Below the pieces are notes generated by a model. That model saw only the letters and a program-made list of their open reading frames with translations, did no database searches and was not told the origin of the DNA. From a virus: a stretch of 44,209 nt of DNA. Below are positions 2,510-43,586 of this stretch, piece by piece. The first letter of the stretch is position 1. Every line of letters starts with the position of its first letter. The DNA is taken from UHGV virus genome UHGV-0168748; one strand, written 5' to 3'. Both the position numbers and the translations under genes were made by a program.

Positions 2510-2713
2510 TTTAAATCTCCTAACAAAAAAATAATAAAGTAAAAGGGTGCTTGCATAAGCACCCCAGGAACTGTTAAATTTTGCAAGCCCCGCCTGAGCA
2601 GTTATCGTCTTCCGTAGTTGGGTCAGCACCCTTCTCTACGGTCGCTTCCGGGTCTAAGCCAGGGATTGCAAATTCGTCAGTTTCTTTAACGGTTTCTACT
2701 TTAACTTCTTCAG

Positions 2714-2941
2714 TCATTTTTTTTTAGTTTCCAAATTTCTTACAAAGGGGTTAACAGTTTTGATTTTAAGGTTAGCGAACGGCGACAGAAGTTTCGCCAT
2801 CGGTGCTAGACCTGGCGGCGTCTCTTTATATCGTACAACGCGTACCTTCGACTTACCAGGACCCTTACGTACACGGTTGTAGCCAATAAAATATACAGTA
2901 CCTGTAAAGTATCTAAGGCTGTGAAATCGTGGTTTTTTCAT
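2714..2941 (-). CDS. small basic protein (75 aa)
   Basis: Track ORF; lysine/arginine rich; its ATG overlaps the stop of the upstream 49-aa ORF (TGATG). Confidence 0.45.
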   Translation of the reverse strand: MKKPRFHSLRYFTGTVYFIGYNRVRKGPGKSKVRVVRYKETPPGLAPMAKLLSPFANLKIKTVNPFVRNLETKKK

Positions 2942-3090
2942 CAGACATCCCCAAAAGCCAGAAAGCGTTTACGACCCTTGTGTGGTCCTTTACGCCAGCG
3001 ACTAGCGATAGTTTTACGATTTACTTTGCAACGGATTCTCTTATTCAGATTGATATACTTTATAGTAACTTTAATGACATCATTCGTCAT
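2941..3090 (-). CDS. small basic protein (49 aa), not in ORF track
   Basis: Hand-translated MTNDVIKVTIKYINLNKRIRCKVNRKTIASRWRKGPHKGRKRFLAFGDV; GAGGG RBS; shares RKGPxK motif with the next ORF. Confidence 0.4.
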   Translation of the reverse strand: MTNDVIKVTIKYINLNKRIRCKVNRKTIASRWRKGPHKGRKRFLAFGDV

Positions 3091-3111
3091 AAAGAATTCC
3101 CTCATCATTAA

Positions 3112-6385: not shown

Positions 6386-6404
6386 CGTAATTCTCCTTTA
6401 GGGT

Positions 6405-6442
6405 AAAAAATGAAAATACCCTACTCCTAGACAGGAGTAGGG
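6405..6442 (-). terminator. rho-independent terminator
   Basis: Stem CCCTACTCC / GGAGTAGGG; on the minus strand it is followed by a U-run. Confidence 0.65.
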
Positions 6443-10604: not shown

Positions 10605-10675
10605 AATTCACTCCTAAAGAATGTCTCACGTAGATAATATCTGTCTGACTTCTTTTTGAAATTGAGGTAGTAAGA

Positions 10676-14611: not shown

Positions 14612-14709
14612 CGAGCTTTACCTTTATGGAAGAGTCTCGGTCATAAAGTTTGGGTGAACTGTAAAAAGACTTTACTATGTAACCCTGACTTATAATCCGA
14701 GGTTTTAGA

Positions 14710-15465
14710 ATGAATGTAAATCCACTTGCAGCGTTATCTAGCTTCGCCGCTAAAGCGTCTGCAATCTTACCGAAAGGGTTCAGTGGCCCTCAACAAGAGA
14801 TTGCATTAACCACTTATGACGAGATGTCGGACGTTTCCAAGTGGATGCAACAAGAAAAATTCCTACACTTTGCGGGGATGTTGGTTATCGTTCCACCAGG
14901 GTTTAATACCTACGTGATGGATCACCTGAACCGCTTAGAATCCGTATGGAGTTCACTGCAAAACATCTATACAGGTATTCTGTTACCGGTAGATAAACAA
15001 CTTTCGGCCCTTACACATGATGTGGGGGTACTGTCATTACCGATTGGTTTCCGTTACAAAAACGTTAATTTACCGCTACGTAACGTTAACCCGAAAGACC
15101 TGGTTAACTTATTAGCGAAATCGTACATTAACAACGTTATTGACCAGCGTCCGATTGAGAAGACGTACCACAGTGCAAGCGAAATTGATGTTGCGTTCAA
15201 TCGTGCCAAAGCACTGAACGTTGAGATCACAAAACGCCTACGGATGAATATCGACAAGTCAATCGAGTCCATTCGTACTACATCAGAAATTTTGTCTGAA
15301 CAAAACATCCATCCGAACGTAGCAAAAGAACTGACGATGATGTTAGATTTTGCTTCTGATTGGGTGGAACTGTTTGGTTTGTTCATGAAACAGGTTAACG
15401 AATTAATCGAATGCCTGAACGTTACTGCCGAACGCTTAAAAGCGCTTAAGGCAAACAAAAAATAA
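14710..15465 (+). CDS. hypothetical protein
   Basis: 251-aa ORF; sigma70-like TATAAT element upstream; followed by terminator. Confidence 0.55.
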   Translation: MNVNPLAALSSFAAKASAILPKGFSGPQQEIALTTYDEMSDVSKWMQQEKFLHFAGMLVIVPPGFNTYVMDHLNRLESVWSSLQNIYTGILLPVDKQLSALTHDVGVLSLPIGFRYKNVNLPLRNVNPKDLVNLLAKSYINNVIDQRPIEKTYHSASEIDVAFNRAKALNVEITKRLRMNIDKSIESIRTTSEILSEQNIHPNVAKELTMMLDFASDWVELFGLFMKQVNELIECLNVTAERLKALKANKK

Positions 15466-21820: not shown

Positions 21821-22279
21821 TCAGTACAAACACGTCGTCAAGTATTGATTGTACGAATCGAGTAAGGTCTGACGGTCAGAACGGTAATTCCACAACAAAC
21901 TGTTAAGTTTTCGTGATAAGTCCCGACTAATTTCTTGCGGCGTTAAGGAACTTTCATCGAGTGATAAACGTTCAGGCACAACATGTAATTTCGGTAACTC
22001 ATAACGTTCGCAGAGTGGAGCCAACATCGGAGGGCTCCAGCCACGTTTAGCGGCTTGCTGATTTAAATTTCGTGTGTAGACATAAACGTAATAAGCATAG
22101 GTGTTGACGTCTGCAACATACTCACGCATTGCATCTTTGTCAATTTTCCAATTCACCATGATGGGTGGTGTCGGAGGAGGTTCCAATGGACGATAAGCTG
22201 CCCGTCTGACCTCTTCGCCGTAGCTATTACTCACCAAACCCATGAATACAACCATGATGAATAACAGCGTTTTCATCAA
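21821..22279 (-). CDS. secreted Pro-rich protein (signal peptide)
   Basis: N-terminal MMKTLLFIMVVFMGLVSNSYG then PLEPPPTPP; no lipobox cysteine. Confidence 0.5.
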   Translation of the reverse strand: MMKTLLFIMVVFMGLVSNSYGEEVRRAAYRPLEPPPTPPIMVNWKIDKDAMREYVADVNTYAYYVYVYTRNLNQQAAKRGWSPPMLAPLCERYELPKLHVVPERLSLDESSLTPQEISRDLSRKLNSLLWNYRSDRQTLLDSYNQYLTTCLY

Positions 22280-26317: not shown

Positions 26318-26335
26318 GCTTTTGCTCCTTTAGGA

Positions 26336-26375
26336 AATGAAAATAAAAGTACCCCTACTCCGTTAAGAGTAGGGG
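26336..26375 (-). terminator. rho-independent terminator
   Basis: CCCCTACTC-CGTTAA-GAGTAGGGG, U-run on minus strand. Confidence 0.65.
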
Positions 26376-29352: not shown

Positions 29353-29385
29353 TTGCAAACCTTAGAGACGCAAAAAAGTAAAAAG

Positions 29386-29514
29386 TTAAAACCAACGCGC
29401 AATGACGAATGCTGCGGCGGCTAATATGGCGGCGGTAATTAGCATCCCGCCCCATGTAAGCTCCGCATCGTATAATGCAGAGATCGCCGCATTCGTAGTA
29501 TTTATCGAGGTCAT
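29386..29514 (-). CDS. small membrane peptide (42 aa), not in ORF track
   Basis: Hand-translated MTSINTTNAAISALYDAELTWGGMLITAAILAAAAFVIARWF; AGGAACAG RBS. Confidence 0.4.
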   Translation of the reverse strand: MTSINTTNAAISALYDAELTWGGMLITAAILAAAAFVIARWF

Positions 29515-29561
29515 CTTTTCTGTTCCTGTTAGTACCCTCCTTACAGAGGGTACGTTCTGGA

Positions 29562-29672
29562 TTATTTGAATGTCGAACCTTCGAACGCCCAGCCGTGTCG
29601 TTTAATTAACCAGTTTAAACCTTTACCGATCAACCACAACGCACCTAGCGTTAGCAGAACCCCTTCAATCAT
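29562..29672 (-). CDS. small membrane peptide (36 aa), not in ORF track
   Basis: Hand-translated MIEGVLLTLGALWLIGKGLNWLIKRHGWAFEGSTFK; strong AGGAGAGGG RBS. Confidence 0.45.
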   Translation of the reverse strand: MIEGVLLTLGALWLIGKGLNWLIKRHGWAFEGSTFK

Positions 29673-29683
29673 AATTCCCTCTC

Positions 29684-29869
29684 CTAATTCCGCCACTCGC
29701 ATTCGCGTTGACGCCAAATCGAACCCCAGAATAGTTTAATCGAATACGATGAAACTACCCATAAAATCATTACCACGCAAAACATGACGTAAAGTATTGC
29801 CAAAATGACCATAAAGCCAAATCCCGCCGCGCTCATCGAACGACGGAACCAATCAGTTTGCATAAACAA
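29684..29869 (-). CDS. small membrane protein (61 aa)
   Basis: Track ORF with hydrophobic core FGFMVILAILYVMFCVVMILWVV; GAGGGAG upstream. Confidence 0.4.
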   Translation of the reverse strand: MFMQTDWFRRSMSAAGFGFMVILAILYVMFCVVMILWVVSSYSIKLFWGSIWRQRECEWRN

Positions 29870-36397: not shown

Positions 36398-36446
36398 TGA
36401 AATACTCCTTAAAGGTTAACAGGTTAAAAGAGTTAATCGTAACTCT

Positions 36447-36489: not shown

Positions 36490-36520
36490 ACAAAAAAGAA
36501 AGTGGGAGCAATGCTCCCAC
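36490..36520 (-). terminator. rho-independent terminator
   Basis: GTGGGAG-CAATG-CTCCCAC, U-run on minus strand. Confidence 0.6.
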
Positions 36521-39681: not shown

Positions 39682-40434
39682 TTACGCGTGTTTTAACAAT
39701 AACAAGCGGTTATTGGTAATTTCAGCAGCGCCCCAGCCTCTAACAGTAGCGATGCTAAGTATATCGACTTCATCACGGTATTTCAACATCGGATCGTTGG
39801 GATTGATTTCGATCACGTGAGTATTTCTGGAAATCGTTTCTACTTCTGGGATTTCTTTTACTATATCCGAAGCAATTAACTCAAGAACGTACAGCTCCTC
39901 GAAGCATTTAAAGTAGATATGGACGCCGTATAACTTATCGTTATCGTCCCTTAACGGGTAGAGATTAAAACCAGGACCCAGTAACGTTAGTTCCGCATTG
40001 TAAGGTACTTCAAATTCACGATGAATTAATGCAATTCCGTGGCGGAATAAAGGGAAGTGGGCAAATACAGACATTAATGCCCACTGTTCTGTTATAATGG
40101 TCGGGTCATGGCTAAGCGGTCCAATGTTAGCCAGATTTTCGATAGCGTAGCGTACTGAATTAAAATCGCTTTCGGTAATGATACTGTAAATAAGCATCAC
40201 ACCAGTTTCGCTGTTAAGAATACTGAATACGCTATTAGCATAAGCGGTAATCCGATATTTATCCTCTGGTTCGTCAGTAGGAACGTTTTCAGGCTTAACC
40301 GTTTTGATTTCGACTAATTTAGCAGGGTATTTTGAACCTACTAAATCTTCAACGATAGGAGAGGCGATCTCTAAATAGGTCTTAGCAAAGAGTTCATCTA
40401 AGTATTGGTTAACAAAAACTTCTGCTGTCAGCAT
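39682..40434 (-). CDS. member D of paralogous family with conserved C-terminal tail
   Basis: Ends ...IATVRGWGAAEITNNRLLLLKHA. Confidence 0.55.
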   Translation of the reverse strand: MLTAEVFVNQYLDELFAKTYLEIASPIVEDLVGSKYPAKLVEIKTVKPENVPTDEPEDKYRITAYANSVFSILNSETGVMLIYSIITESDFNSVRYAIENLANIGPLSHDPTIITEQWALMSVFAHFPLFRHGIALIHREFEVPYNAELTLLGPGFNLYPLRDDNDKLYGVHIYFKCFEELYVLELIASDIVKEIPEVETISRNTHVIEINPNDPMLKYRDEVDILSIATVRGWGAAEITNNRLLLLKHA

Positions 40435-40493
40435 GGATTATTCTCCTAAAAAGGAATAAGGAAGTCACTACGTTCCTCTGGGAAGAGTATGTC

Positions 40494-40555
40494 GGTATAC
40501 TACGTATACCTCCGCTATTTATATCCGTATACATAATGCCCCCTACCCCCTACCG
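40494..40555. promoter_or_regulatory. cluster of GTATAC half-sites and CCCCCTAC direct repeat
   Basis: GGTATAC-TAC-GTATACC, CCGTATAC and CCCCCTACCCCCTACC within a 385-bp intergenic region. Confidence 0.35.
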
Positions 40556-40610
40556 GTATCCCGAGTAGCAGAATAAAGGGACAATCTGTAAATTTTAAGT
40601 AATACTATGA

Positions 40611-40688
40611 TTACCGAGGAATAGCTGGGTTGTAGCGTTTGAACTGTTCGATGACTTCGTCCAATCCGCCTTTCTTCTCAGTAGACAT
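40611..40688 (-). CDS. possible 25-aa small ORF, not in ORF track
   Basis: Hand-translated MSTEKKGGLDEVIEQFKRYNPAIPR with AGGAAACAGACC RBS. Confidence 0.25.
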   Translation of the reverse strand: MSTEKKGGLDEVIEQFKRYNPAIPR

Positions 40689-40770
40689 TGGTCTGTTTCC
40701 TAATAACGTGGTAACTCCGTTTCGAAAGAAACGTGTCCGTAGGGACTGAACTCGCACTTCAGTCCCTATT

Positions 40771-40794
40771 CACCTAAGTAAAATATATCTGAAA
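40771..40794. promoter_or_regulatory. conserved 24-bp intergenic element, copy 2
   Basis: CACCTAAGTAAAATATATCTGAAA; adjacent perfect 10-bp hairpin AGGGACTGAA-CTCGCAC-TTCAGTCCCT. Confidence 0.45.
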
Positions 40795-40820
40795 CCAATT
40801 CCGATCTAAGGAACGTCCCG

Positions 40821-41786
40821 ATGGAGAAATCCAGTGTTGATTTTTTCTCAATTGGTATCGTCGCGGAAGACAAACCCCGTGGTACAGATCGGGTAAAAGT
40901 GATACCAATTGAAACCAACTTTGCTAACCCTACTGTGGTGCAATCTGTTTCTTCAGCAACTGAAAAGACGCATGAAACGTCTGGTGCAACAGATAACCTA
41001 ACCATTAAGACGGGTAACACGATAACAGCAAAGTGGTGGAAGTTTAACTCCAACCGAATTAATTCCCCTGACGTTAAACGAGAAGACTACGTTATCTTGT
41101 TACGTTTGGGGAAAACCGATATTTATTTTTGGATTGATTTGAATTTCGCTAACGTTAAGCGATTAGAAGATGCGGTTTATGCGTGGTCGGCTGACCCCGA
41201 AAACCAAATGGCGGATGACCTGTCCAATGCGTATGTGTTGAATGTCTCGACGATTGACAAACATATCACGCTAAGAACATGTATGGTGAATGGCGAGAAA
41301 GCGGCGTGGTTATTCCAGTTTGACAACGCAAACGGATCGTGGCAATGCGTTGACCATAAAGGGAACAAGTATTACATTAACTCGGTCGAAGATGATCTCG
41401 GGTTTGAGAATGCGATGCTATCAAAAGTGAACATCAACAAAGAAGATGCGTTCATTTATTCAAAGCGTTCTATTAACCTGGAAACAAAAACGATTAATGA
41501 GAAATGCGAAGTTCGCAATACAGAAGCATCGAAATCCGTTACCTTTAAAACACAAACCTGGTTAACGGAAGCGGGGAGTTCGACCACCTTTAAAACGCCG
41601 AACTTTAAACAAGAAGGGAATGAAGCACAATTCACCGGTAATCTTGAAGTGGCTAAAAACTTCAAGTACGGCGGTACTGGGGAAGGTGTGGGTATCTTTA
41701 CGGTTAAAGATGCGGTTATTGCGGGCATTACTTTCAGCGTACACATCCACGACGGTGTACACGGTCCTACTTCGGGTCCACGGTAA
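40821..41786 (+). CDS. hypothetical protein with His-rich C-terminal tip
   Basis: 321 aa; ends FSVHIHDGVHGPTSGPR; tail fibre or spike tip is speculation. Confidence 0.55.
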   Translation: MEKSSVDFFSIGIVAEDKPRGTDRVKVIPIETNFANPTVVQSVSSATEKTHETSGATDNLTIKTGNTITAKWWKFNSNRINSPDVKREDYVILLRLGKTDIYFWIDLNFANVKRLEDAVYAWSADPENQMADDLSNAYVLNVSTIDKHITLRTCMVNGEKAAWLFQFDNANGSWQCVDHKGNKYYINSVEDDLGFENAMLSKVNINKEDAFIYSKRSINLETKTINEKCEVRNTEASKSVTFKTQTWLTEAGSSTTFKTPNFKQEGNEAQFTGNLEVAKNFKYGGTGEGVGIFTVKDAVIAGITFSVHIHDGVHGPTSGPR

Positions 41787-41904
41787 TTCCCCTTTTTCTT
41801 ACGTTGCGTTTATATATTGTGACCTGACGTTGGTAAGCTTCTTATCAACACTTTTCTTAAACCCATCGTTTAGTTAAGCAGGCCACTTCTTTTCGCGCAC
41901 TCTT

Positions 41905-41938
41905 CTCCTCCCTTCGGGGAGGAGTTATCTTATGCTTT
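41905..41938 (+). terminator. rho-independent terminator
   Basis: CTCCTCCC-TTCG-GGGAGGAG followed by T-rich tract. Confidence 0.55.
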
Positions 41939-41995: not shown

Positions 41996-42205
41996 ATGTC
42001 TATTAAAGAGTTCTCTTCTGCTGAGCATATCCCAGAAGAGTTTAAGAAAATTGGTAACGTTAGTGCCTTTGGTGATACCGTTGACCACGTAACCGGTAAA
42101 CTGGCTGCTGAAGCCGAGAAAATCGGTGGTGACGCATTTAAAGTTATCGGTATCTCTGGTAACAACAAACTGCACGGCAACGCGATCGTCTACAAAAAAG
42201 ACTAA
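41996..42205 (+). CDS. DUF1471 (YhcN/BhsA/McbA-like) domain protein lacking signal peptide
   Basis: GDAFKVIGISGNNKLHGNAIVYKK matches the DUF1471 core; GGAGAG RBS; starts MSIKEF with no hydrophobic leader. Confidence 0.6.
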   Translation: MSIKEFSSAEHIPEEFKKIGNVSAFGDTVDHVTGKLAAEAEKIGGDAFKVIGISGNNKLHGNAIVYKKD

Positions 42206-42206
42206 G

Positions 42207-42267
42207 CGAAAAAAAAAACGTGCTACTCCTACCCTCTAAGAGGGTAGGAGGTTACTTTATTTTTTTC
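42207..42267. terminator. bidirectional rho-independent terminator
   Basis: A10, CTCCTACCCT-CTAAG-AGGGTAGGAG, T-run; between convergent genes. Confidence 0.75.
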
Positions 42268-43519
42268 GTGCACGAAAACGATGCATTTCTAAATACACTT
42301 TTTCCCAGGGGCCGAAGGGCCCGACTATCGCTTGCGCATCGTTAATCTTCTTCTGGTTATACCAGCGAGCTTCACGAAATACGTAGTTTTGACTGTCGAA
42401 CTCGGTGGTGTTAAATACCCACTCACCTTCTTCCCACGTAGGCCAATAACCTACCGTCTTTCCGAATCGGTTATTTAAATAGCCTAACGGTTTTTCAGAA
42501 TCAGGATCGTTAGGGTCTTTGAGATAACAACGTCCCCAAATCGCGTTATGCGATACGCCCACAATCTCTTCTTCTAAATACGGATTATCCACCGTAAAAA
42601 TAAACGAAGATTCGTGAAGTAAGAGCGCTTTTAATGTTTCTGGGTTGCGAATTCGTTGAACGTTAGCAGGTGAAGATAAATCCCCTACACCGATAGCATC
42701 CCAATCGTAGTAACGCCGTGTTTCTAACACCGTGCGCGCAAGATCGAAATTCGGTAAAGAAATCATAATCGCACGATCGGAGAAATAACCGTTCGCAGGC
42801 AGCCAACGTAACATCCCACCAATAACGAACCCTACGGTTTTACCGGTTATGGATTCGGGCAACGAAATCATTAACGTTGAATAGTAATCGCGCGTGGTGT
42901 CGAGTTTGTTTAAGGTAAGATTAGCAATCGGGTATGTTTTCACCGCACCGAGCGCATCAAAAACCATGCAACCGATATCTGGTGTACCTGCACGTCTAAC
43001 GATATTCCCAGCACCAGGTAATCGTACACCAACAGAATCAGATTGATGCGGCACCCATTGCCCGTTGATGTTGTATAGCACCCCGTTACGGTATTTGTCT
43101 TTCCATTTGTCTTCACAGACTATCACCACATCTGTCGCATCATCCAGACTGAAATCCTGACTGTAATGATAACCCGCAGGGCACAGGTAAGACTCAACGG
43201 GTACGTCTGCGTTAATCGATTGGTAATGCGCCCAGCTGAATTCCAGTTTCGGTAATCCTGCTTTTAAGGTAGGAATAACCACACCGGCTTTTTCATTCAA
43301 CCAGTCTTGTAAAGTATCGGTTCGGTTTTGTAATTCAGCAAGGTGATACTGGCTGACTAACGTATAGTCTTTACCAAGCGCACTCAGGCCGACCTCAAAG
43401 GTGTGGTAATCCGAACACAGTGTAGCTAAAGGTTGCGTGACATCGATGGCTCCCCAGGTACGGGACTCTCGAGAGAAGCCAAAAGCGCTGTCGGGCCGCA
43501 CTTGATAAGCAGTAGTCAC
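42257..43519 (-). CDS. hypothetical protein (420 aa)
   Basis: Track ORF; function not recognised. Confidence 0.6.
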   Translation of the reverse strand: MTTAYQVRPDSAFGFSRESRTWGAIDVTQPLATLCSDYHTFEVGLSALGKDYTLVSQYHLAELQNRTDTLQDWLNEKAGVVIPTLKAGLPKLEFSWAHYQSINADVPVESYLCPAGYHYSQDFSLDDATDVVIVCEDKWKDKYRNGVLYNINGQWVPHQSDSVGVRLPGAGNIVRRAGTPDIGCMVFDALGAVKTYPIANLTLNKLDTTRDYYSTLMISLPESITGKTVGFVIGGMLRWLPANGYFSDRAIMISLPNFDLARTVLETRRYYDWDAIGVGDLSSPANVQRIRNPETLKALLLHESSFIFTVDNPYLEEEIVGVSHNAIWGRCYLKDPNDPDSEKPLGYLNNRFGKTVGYWPTWEEGEWVFNTTEFDSQNYVFREARWYNQKKINDAQAIVGPFGPWEKVYLEMHRFRARKK

Positions 43520-43586
43520 AGCTCTTTTCCTCTATAGATTCAAGTCATAGTATGAACTCGACGCCCACGGATTATAGGAGTAGATA

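Follow-up and report, generated by a model that had tools for sequence, protein, structure and literature searches.

The group of jumbo phages to which the sequence described here belongs encodes two RNA polymerases, a virion RNA polymerase (vRNAP) for the early genes and a non-virion RNA polymerase (nvRNAP) for the middle and late genes (PMC7598289). The early promoter consensus of phage AR9 is AAATATATATTAT-N6-G+1, and an AT-rich -10 motif is general to early promoters (PMC5312081, PMC7598289, PMC8244752). The late promoter of phiKZ is T-3ATG+1 (PMC7598289). T4-type phages contain promoter-early stem-loop (PeSL) cassettes, which shuffle ORFan genes (PMC2839356, PMC4122927), and in phiKZ and 201phi2-1 a small RNA (sRNA) is derived from the 5′ untranslated region upstream of the tail genes gp182 and gp277, respectively (PMC11512511). 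Here, we describe a non-coding gap of 386 bp (positions 40435-40820) in a stretch of 44,209 nt from the virus genome UHGV-0168748, which we refer to as the window. The gap separates a minus-strand gene (39682-40434) from the plus-strand gene of a baseplate protein, and it is more than one unit, as it joins an ancient conserved module to a recent variable insertion. On balance, and with moderate confidence, we read the gap as a regulatory mosaic consisting of an early-promoter cassette, an ancestral late promoter and an ancient module that controls expression of the baseplate gene. The window is part of a new, undescribed SPN3US/phiEaH2-like jumbo phage, with a DNA identity of about 75% to Erwinia phage phiEaH2 and Salmonella SPN3US-like phages in conserved genes only.

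A near-invariant module upstream of the baseplate gene

The most interesting object of the locus is a single-copy, near-invariant module in the left part of the gap (40455-40585). It aligns with the sequence upstream of the baseplate gene in Erskinevirus, Seoulvirus, Machinavirus, Wellingtonvirus and Derbicusvirus, and is found in six phage groups (the clade of the window and these five genera) with different left neighbours. All share one plan. The module starts with A-rich direct repeats that end in GGAnGTC(A/G) and are of the type AATAAGGAnGTC(A/G). These are followed by an invariant GTCG, a hairpin, an invariant CTCCG and a variable spacer of 10-27 nt. Next comes a C4-5-N2-3-C4-5 tract, which is conserved in 14/14 aligned relatives as well as in Derbicus and Wellington, and then a spacer of about 40 nt containing TCCC leads to a late promoter. 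Both the distance and the orientation of the module relative to this promoter are constant across the genera. Within the first direct repeat lies a further small hairpin (40459-40477), the outer pair of which is compensatory between phiEaH2 (AAGGA/TCCTT) and Asesino (GAGGA/TCCTC).

The constraint on the module was apparent from a clade sample of 13 genomes, which were taken from IMG/VR and metagenomes and encode baseplate proteins 94-97% identical to that of the window. Among 12 clade genomes, 3 of 125 module sites were variable (2.4%), one of the three being in the hairpin loop. The baseplate gene itself varied at 195 of 963 sites overall, with 42 of 642 sites (6.5%) at codon positions 1 and 2 and 153 of 321 (48%) at codon position 3. 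Per site, the module is thus more constrained than codon positions 1 and 2 of the adjacent essential gene, whereas the sequence flanking it on either side is highly variable or non-homologous.

Furthermore, the module occurs once per genome. An nhmmer profile matched once each in the window and the complete genome of phiEaH2, and an exact-pattern scan of the 2.9 million viral contigs of IMG/VR placed the module in this phage group only, once per contig. A tight pattern was used for this, with 11 matches of which 4 were due to chance (L144, L145, L148 and L150); a looser pattern gave more than 120 matches, mostly by chance in GC-rich phages, and was useless. The C-tract pair is present as a sole copy in the window and as a sole intergenic copy in phiEaH2. 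We considered the idea that the module represents a general promoter class and rejected it, as AAGGATGTC is found in phiEaH2 intergenic DNA only within the module, and both ACCTCCGCT and the C-tract pair are unique in the window. Upstream of the gp164 homologue of phiKZ there is no such module, the gap between gp165 and gp164 being only 64 nt. In the literature we found no description of the module, and it matches no described element.

In the middle of the module is the hairpin GGTATAC-TAC-GTATACC. Its stem is spelled differently elsewhere (GGTGAC/GTCACC, GGTACTC/GAGTACC, GGTATCC/GGATACC, GGTACCC/GGGTACC or GGTAGC/GCTACC), and between the invariant flanks of Derbicus and Wellington no more than a weak stem remains. 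RNAalifold reported compensatory changes in 6 of the 10 hairpin pairs; of the 7 inner pairs, 6 have such changes. Moreover, 91% of the alignment cells paired, as compared to 42-57% in slid controls, and there were 26 cells with double changes versus 8.1 +/- 2.2 in shuffles. Since the spelling of the stem differs by genus and the pairing is conserved, GTATAC belongs to a structure and is not a recognition sequence.

This bears directly on the first-pass annotation, which had pictured the gap as a divergent regulatory hub with GTATAC half-sites. In such a model, a dimeric regulator bound to the half-sites would control both flanking genes. GTATAC does occur three times within 38 nt of the gap (and 14 times in the window), a perfect inverted repeat is located between oppositely oriented genes, and the specificity of a regulator may have co-evolved with its site. 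However, the stem sequence varies in every genus while the pairing stays, and the half-site sequence is not conserved among the relatives that keep the element, contrary to what a palindromic operator would require. The third GTATAC copy resides in a spacer segment that is particular to this clade, being absent from the short Erskinevirus spacer and replaced by a different sequence in other genera. In addition, the promoters that can be identified in the gap, early and late, face each other and are convergent rather than divergent. To judge from these comparisons, the module does not look like a GTATAC-recognising operator, and we consider a divergent hub of this kind very unlikely. GTATAC being self-complementary, the third copy could pair with the left or the right hairpin arm.

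Several other ideas about the sequence of the module were discarded. An anti-Shine-Dalgarno role, with CCUCC of the module pairing with the baseplate Shine-Dalgarno sequence, relies on a trivial complementarity of CUCC with GGAG, and this is lost in the clade of the window (AAGGAA) though the module is intact there. Likewise, none of the small open reading frames (ORFs) across the module, including short plus-strand ones that start from the ATG of GGATGTCGG, is conserved between genera. A 41-aa minus-strand ORF (40409-40534), which begins 4 nt beyond the G-tract and extends into the start of gene 39682-40434, is probably spurious; its counterpart in L133-type genomes has 32 aa, and the ORF shows no conservation in other genera. 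The module sequence ACGTTCCT (40470-40477) is perfectly complementary to AGGAACGT (40809-40816) at the baseplate ribosome-binding site. This match is probably coincidental, as Erskinevirus has the left copy conserved together with a different baseplate ribosome-binding site.

Putative rightward late promoters

In all relatives, a sequence of the form CGTAAAAAAG-N6-8-TA(G/A)TATGA is located directly upstream of the baseplate ribosome-binding site. The gap of the window contains a homologous sequence, designated P3 (Table 1), and keeps the homologous CTGTAAATTTTAAGTAATACTATGA-TTACCGAGGA at 40586-40620 including the ancestral ribosome-binding site. The TATG of P3 (40606-40609) is situated within TACTATGA. 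By analogy with the late promoter of phiKZ, 40586-40610 would be the late promoter that the baseplate gene had ancestrally, of the TATG type recognised by the nvRNAP. P3 is now located 212 nt from the baseplate ATG, and an ancestral promoter and ribosome-binding site at such a distance indicate that about 40611-40806 is an insertion.

Similar sites precede other genes of this kind. TA[AG]TATGA has five copies in phiEaH2, four of which are directly upstream of genes; three genes behind these sites are those for the tail sheath, the baseplate protein and a virion structural protein. A related site, TAGTATGT, is present upstream of gp137, and altogether the P3 octamer class was found upstream of the sheath gene, gp092, gp095 and gp137 in phiEaH2. 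TA[GC]TATGA occurs in the window at 43548(+), 43552(-) and 14678(+). The first two of these positions fall in a palindrome, TCATAGTATGA (window 43546-43556; phiEaH2 record about 81106-81120), which is made of TAGTATGA and TACTATGA and carries a TATG-type core on both strands. The palindrome is conserved in phiEaH2. It is flanked by the divergent virion genes 42257-43519(-) and 43587(+) and resembles a bidirectional late promoter. The third position belongs to TGTAAAAAGACTTTACTATG (14660-14681), which precedes gene 14710-15465, the sole plus-strand gene in a long minus-strand block; at the matching position phiEaH2 gp137 has CGTAAAAAGACTTTAGTATG. An A-tract plus TATG may define an extended promoter subclass that is shared with the baseplate gene.

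The TATG of P3 is absent from 6 of the 13 clade genomes (L133, L143, L158, L159, L160 and L162), and another rightward promoter must therefore exist. A candidate, P2, is the TATG at the foot of the module hairpin (40488-40491), the sole plus-strand TATG upstream of the baseplate gene that is common to 13/13 clade genomes. Outside the clade this TATG is not conserved, and GATG, GGTG, GAAG or GAGG is found in its place in other genera. The geometry of phiKZ middle promoters (A-rich sequence plus TACT at -22) was also tried upstream of 40491 and was rejected, as it fits the window and Erskinevirus but its spacing fails in Seoulvirus.

A putative leftward early promoter and its transcript

On the minus strand, right beside the baseplate ATG, there is a 24-mer that recurs in the window (Table 1). 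A degenerate consensus derived from its copies, CAGAYAKATATTAYYTASGTG, had 4 matches in the window, where 0.01 would be expected by chance. A scan of the window with a position-weight matrix detected five sites. All are minus-strand sites, and in every case a ribosome-binding site and ATG on this strand follow at a distance of 20-85 nt. In phiEaH2, whose genome is complete, the same matrix detected 23 sites, which without exception precede genes and are located on the strand that carries most of the genes. All 28 sites are co-oriented with the downstream gene. Some of those in phiEaH2 precede gp204/205 and gp216, for which the annotation is RNA polymerase beta subunit. The core of the motif is ATAT(A/T)TTAC, followed by 6 nt and then G; at this copy it is preceded by GGTTT, a T-rich stretch, and G40771 is at the expected start position, 6 nt downstream of ATATTTTAC. 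The 24-mer agrees with the AR9 early consensus as well as with the AT-rich -10 motif of early promoters in general, and it is present in 13/13 clade genomes. By analogy, we take it for a minus-strand promoter of the vRNAP type that would fire leftwards from beside the baseplate ATG.

From 40771 leftwards, the predicted early transcript would contain an 11-bp hairpin (at +3), the CGTTTC/GAAACG hairpin, AGGAAA and an ORF of 25 codons. No terminator follows this cassette, since none of the hairpins in the gap precedes a T-run on either strand, and for this reason the early transcript is expected to continue through the gap and to read on into genes 40434->36526. The early operon would then comprise about 4.3 kb, from 40771 to an intrinsic terminator at 36520-36492. 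This terminator is followed by the next early promoter (36467-36446) in a terminator-promoter arrangement. P3 is 160 nt to the left of the 24-mer and would fire rightwards, whereas the 24-mer would fire leftwards, so that the predicted early and late transcripts overlap over 40609-40771. Across the cassette, late rightward RNAs would run antisense to the early one, with G40609 as their start and the TATG at 40488-40491 as a possible further one.

A subclass of the early promoters, CAGATATATATTACyTAGGTGA, is followed by a hairpin of 5-7 bp at +2/+3 and then a T-run, as in GAGTTAcgatTAACTCtttt. Examples are located at 36425-36445 in the window and at 22051, 87471, 148055 and 223796 in the phiEaH2 record. 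These hairpins with T-runs recur across the genome and look like promoter-proximal terminators or 5′ stabilisers. In the literature we found no mapping of transcription signals, start sites or polymerase dependence for the SPN3US/Erwinia group of jumbo phages.

A variable cassette with a micro-gene that is probably real

The same gap measures 100-300 bp in related phages, and that of the window is longer by an insertion of about 200 bp. This segment (about 40611-40806) appears, from the sequence comparisons, to be a clade-specific and recombinationally variable insertion, which would also have brought the new ribosome-binding site AAGGAA. Among the 13 clade genomes it occurs as three ORF alleles and one deletion form between invariant flanks.

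Two hairpins are located in the insertion. The loop of the CGTTTC/GAAACG hairpin varies (GAAA, GAAAA or GAAT), which means that it is not a strictly conserved GNRA tetraloop. The 11-bp hairpin is kept in 13/13 clade genomes, has no T-run, and is also contained in the long leader of the rightward late transcript. All of its 121 cells pair across 11 distinct sequences, and three pairs show compensatory double changes, the stem variants being GGGAC/GTCCC, GGAGC/GCTCC, GGGGT/ACCCC and GGGGC/GCCCC. Its 7-nt loop (40751-40757, and the same position in L134, L135 and L159) is present in both orientations among near-identical genomes (CTCGCAC vs GTGCGAG, and CTGGTAC vs GTACCAG). Such a loop-inversion polymorphism is typical of hairpin-mediated template switching.

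With respect to the features of the gap, the first-pass annotation was confirmed, and its interpretation was partly right. The motifs it listed are all present where it had placed them, except that the hairpin described as a perfect 10-bp one, though perfect, comprises 11 bp (40740-40750 with 40758-40768). The module hairpin and the 11-bp hairpin are real in that their stems covary, the 24-mer is a recurring functional motif, and the suspected 25-aa ORF is probably a real gene. The gap, which had been called regulatory, indeed marks the boundary of oppositely transcribed gene blocks. It is unusually long relative to the homologous gaps, but it is not the longest ORF-free stretch of the window; at the level of ORFs of at least 90 aa, 2630-3111 and 29359-29852 are longer.

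The ORF exists as three alleles of the same length. Allele A reads MSTEKK[GS]GL[DN]EVIE[QL]FKRYNPAIPR, allele B M[FL]AEQKDGIEEVVRLFRHYSPYLPR, and allele C MSTKKES[LH]NELLKRLKDYTPFSTFR, the latter being readable only if an A-run is taken as 6. In four of the 13 clade genomes the ORF is deleted. Between alleles A and B, 32 of 78 nt differ (41% divergence) and 12 of 26 translated positions are shared, yet start, stop, the length of 25 codons and the ribosome-binding site are kept across alleles. Third codon positions have an excess of the changes between A and B (9, 8 and 15 by codon position), and of the six frames the coding one is the best and is alone in being open in both alleles (simulation P about 0.02). 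The two genomes with allele C differ by three synonymous changes and one non-synonymous change in the homologous frame.

Conversely, the ORF may not be translated at all, in which case the cassette would produce a non-coding early RNA or an antisense partner of the baseplate leader. The ORF is very short and dispensable, has no database homologues (a tblastn search of the 25-aa peptide against phage records gave no match), and covers exactly the segment over which the predicted early and late transcripts overlap. In addition, neither of the two genomes with allele C (L143 about 2290-2300; L158 about 1290-1300) has it in frame, as the A-run measures 7 in one of the assemblies and 5 in the other, which could reflect an assembly error, decay or slippage-dependent expression. 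Changes within alleles amount to about 5 non-synonymous and 4 synonymous ones, and thus point to mild purifying selection only. In view of the survival of start, stop, length and ribosome-binding site across 41% divergence, the uniquely open frame, the excess of third-position changes and the allele-C pair, we regard a non-coding cassette as a doubtful though serious alternative. Taken together, the sequence evidence, which is moderate, suggests that the ORF is probably a real, dispensable and fast-evolving early micro-gene. A hypervariable, dispensable ORF between invariant regulatory flanks is the expected signature of an accessory micro-gene for host interaction or anti-defence. It was also considered as a remnant of phiEaH2 gp096, but there is no similarity, and a gp096 homologue is absent from the window.

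What the module may control

The left neighbour of the module varies by group: it is the 105-aa gp096 in Erskinevirus and Seoulvirus, a 235-aa protein in another group, and a 250-aa protein in the window. In Machinavirus the module is about 150 nt from the left gene. In Derbicus a leftward early promoter is located between the left gene and the module, which occupies the spacer between diverging promoters; this position means that the module is outside the leftward transcript there. The module is also intact in the clade genomes that lack the TATG of P3. The fixed spacing to the late promoter, the changing left neighbour and this retention without P3 together imply that the module is tied to the baseplate side or is autonomous. 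We infer that it is a gene-specific control element of baseplate-gene expression. It might provide a phage factor with a binding platform upstream of the late promoter, or form a leader that starts at the foot of the hairpin. In Derbicus (L170, about 1290-1320 and 1325-1370), the early promoter is on the opposite side of the module from that of the window, and a plus-strand ORF of 14 codons, with AAGGAGG as a strong ribosome-binding site, runs across the position of the module hairpin.

Several observations weigh against the mosaic as we have drawn it, in addition to the loss of P3 from some clade members, the restriction of P2 to the clade, and the frame and substitution pattern of the ORF described above. 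All start sites and promoter classes are predictions by analogy with phiKZ and AR9. The module is conserved with or without P3, which fits an independent function equally well as promoter control. Furthermore, the strand evidence conflicts. Minus-strand RNA folds better than shuffles (z = -3.8 for 40771->40435 and -2.0 for the module part), and plus-strand RNA does not (z = -1.2 and +0.7, respectively). The few wobble pairs, however, are G-U on the plus strand only; the 11-bp hairpin has two of them, as does the outer helix of the module hairpin.

The folding results could mean that the module acts as minus-strand RNA, namely as a structured 5′ leader that affects the stability or translation of the leftward mRNA. 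The minus strand offers a G5-N2-3-G5 tract, the Shine-Dalgarno-like AGCGGAGG and a hairpin, and next to the G-tract a second small helix contains G-U pairs possible on this strand only. The predicted early transcript crosses the module in this clade, and about 20-25 nt separate the end of the module from the left gene's start codon in the window and Erskinevirus. Such a leader would nonetheless have to serve genes that are non-homologous between groups, at the distance seen in Machinavirus, and it would not be transcribed leftwards in Derbicus. In addition, the low z values stem largely from G-U pairing of the G-rich strand, and the long G-U helix was not recovered in the cross-genus alignment. 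We therefore think it quite unlikely that the module is a minus-strand leader.

Alternatively, the module could be an autonomous DNA element at the genome level, such as an origin, a packaging or partition signal, or the single binding locus of a phage DNA-binding protein, and would then have no more in common with the baseplate gene than a conserved strand-switch region. Exactly one copy per genome, constraint on nearly every base within the clade and persistence beside a lost P3 TATG would all agree with this. The same applies to the origin-like anatomy, which consists of iteron-like direct repeats about 26-32 bp apart, a palindrome and an A-tract, with G/C tracts that could favour R-loops or non-B DNA. 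The site is at a major divergence of gene orientation, and a 2026 review of jumbo phages mentions no replication origin. Against this, the cumulative GC skew of the whole phiEaH2 genome, which was tried as a test for an origin, mirrors gene orientation only and gives no separate signal at the site. There are no replication or packaging genes nearby, phiKZ is without such an element upstream of gp164, and the fixed spacing to the late promoter across genera suggests one functional unit. On these grounds a genome-level element is unlikely. A version in which the module is a unique cis-acting element of SPN3US-like jumbo phages and not a promoter accessory, for example a replication origin or a signal for packaging or for handling of the genome in the phage nucleus, appears distinctly unlikely. 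At an origin, an initiator would bind the iteron-like repeats and the palindrome, and transcription over G5-N2-3-G5 would prime replication via an R-loop. R-loop priming of replication is known from the T4 and ColE1 origins.

Features and surroundings of the gap

The gap lies at the border between a putative leftward early accessory operon and the rightward late baseplate and tail genes. Left of it are minus-strand genes of unknown function, some of which are paralogous to each other, and right of the baseplate gene are tail and virion genes. The features are compiled in Table 1.

Table 1. Features of the gap between gene 39682-40434 and the baseplate gene, and the predicted end of the early operon
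Feature	Position	Strand	Remarks
5′ leader and ribosome-binding site AGGAG of gene 39682-40434	40435-40454	-	AGGAG is the complement of 40443-40447; from sequence and ORF list
Conserved non-coding module	40455-40585		Direct repeats, covarying hairpin, invariant CTCCG, C5-N2-C5 tract, third hairpin (40551-40569)
Small hairpin AGGAA-N9-TTCCT	40459-40477		In first direct repeat; Erskinevirus and clade of the window only
TATG of P2, candidate second promoter	40488-40491	+	At foot of module hairpin; predicted start G40491
Covarying hairpin GGTATAC-TAC-GTATACC	40494-40510		Perfect 7-bp inverted repeat, 3-nt spacer
Third GTATAC copy, CCGTATAC	40525-40532		In clade-specific spacer segment
C-tract pair CCCCCTA-CCCCCTA-CC, CCCCCTACCCCCTACC	40539-40554		G5-N2-G5 on minus strand
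P3, putative ancestral late promoter, CTGTAAATTTTAAGTAATACTATGA	40586-40610	+	Predicted start G40609
25-aa micro-ORF, MSTEKKGGLDEVIEQFKRYNPAIPR	40611-40688 (40688->40611)	-	Including stop; three same-length alleles
Micro-ORF ribosome-binding site AGGAAA	40696-40701	-	AGGAGA, GGAGG or GGGGAGA in other alleles
Hairpin CGTTTC-GAAA-GAAACG	40718-40733		Stem kept in every ORF-bearing genome
11-bp hairpin	40740-40768		40740-40750 pairs with 40758-40768, 7-nt loop; at +3 of predicted early transcript
24-mer TCACCTAAGTAAAATATATCTGAA	40770-40793	-	23/24 copy at 36446; related copies at 10626, 18809 and 27672
Putative vRNAP-type early promoter, CAGATATATTTTACTTAGGTGA	40770-40791	-	Predicted start G40771
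Baseplate-gene ribosome-binding site AAGGAA	40808-40813	+	Read from sequence
Gene for baseplate assembly (or puncturing) protein	40821-41786	+	phrog_3216 match, E = 2e-113; phiKZ gp164 homologue
Intrinsic terminator GTGGGAGCA-ttg-CTCCCAC and T-run	36492-36520	-	Predicted end of early operon

Rfam 15 gave no match at gathering thresholds in the whole window and none at E <= 5 in 40380-40880, and Pfam gave no match for the flanking proteins. The gap contains no sigma-70-like promoter. Elsewhere in the window, strong intrinsic terminators (41899-41925 and 42226-42250) flank a small gene (41996-42205) that corresponds to phrog_8068 and whose homologues in related phages are annotated as BhsA or DUF1471. 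Further strong terminators are present at about 6395-6420 and 26320-26345, and several terminators of the window reuse stems of the CCCTAC/GTAGGG type.

Comparison with known systems

We assign the promoters to known classes, of which they would be new members. Like the vRNAP early promoters of jumbo phages, the 24-mer family has a conserved AT-rich core of about 10 nt near -10 (here ATAT(A/T)TTAC), with a T-rich stretch upstream and a G at the expected start 6 nt downstream, and many co-oriented copies upstream of operons of unknown function and of genes annotated as RNA polymerase subunits. It differs in that its consensus, CAGATAkATATTAyyTAGGTGA, is group-specific and in that one subclass has a short hairpin immediately after it. 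In keeping with the nvRNAP promoters of phiKZ, TATG, as TA[GC]TATGA, is located directly upstream of tail and baseplate genes, and 5′ leaders are short in the phages related to the window. In the window, by contrast, the inserted cassette gives a leader of 212 nt. The absence of P3 from 6 of 13 clade members would be unexpected for the sole promoter of an essential gene, and the long conserved upstream module has no described counterpart in phiKZ. The locus thereby provides a testable picture for the group, with an early-promoter consensus, a late core TA(G/C)TATGA, and promoters that face each other across a small gene.

The sRNA derived from the 5′ untranslated region of phiKZ gp182 and 201phi2-1 gp277 resembles the module in being a conserved, structured non-coding segment directly upstream of a tail-associated gene in nucleus-forming jumbo phages. 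However, gp182 encodes a 664-aa protein beside gp181, whereas the gene described here is the gp164 homologue; no sequence similarity to the module was noted, and transcription of the module is putative. We therefore rejected a link between the two, which concern a different gene and locus. Either as a control element of the baseplate gene or as a genome-level signal, the module constitutes a defined target for mutagenesis in jumbo phages.

Lastly, the variable cassette shares with PeSLs an early promoter and a stem-loop beside a small hypervariable ORFan gene, and the insertion, deletion and replacement of ORFs between conserved regulatory flanks of near-identical genomes. Unlike in PeSLs, its promoter is not sigma-70-like, but of a type predicted for a phage-encoded multisubunit polymerase, and its stem-loop follows the start site, has no U-tract at this copy and is not a terminator. 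Lacking a sigma-70 promoter and a terminator, the cassette resembles PeSLs in how it works but falls outside their family. It is what PeSL-like modular shuffling would be expected to look like in phages that use their own polymerases.

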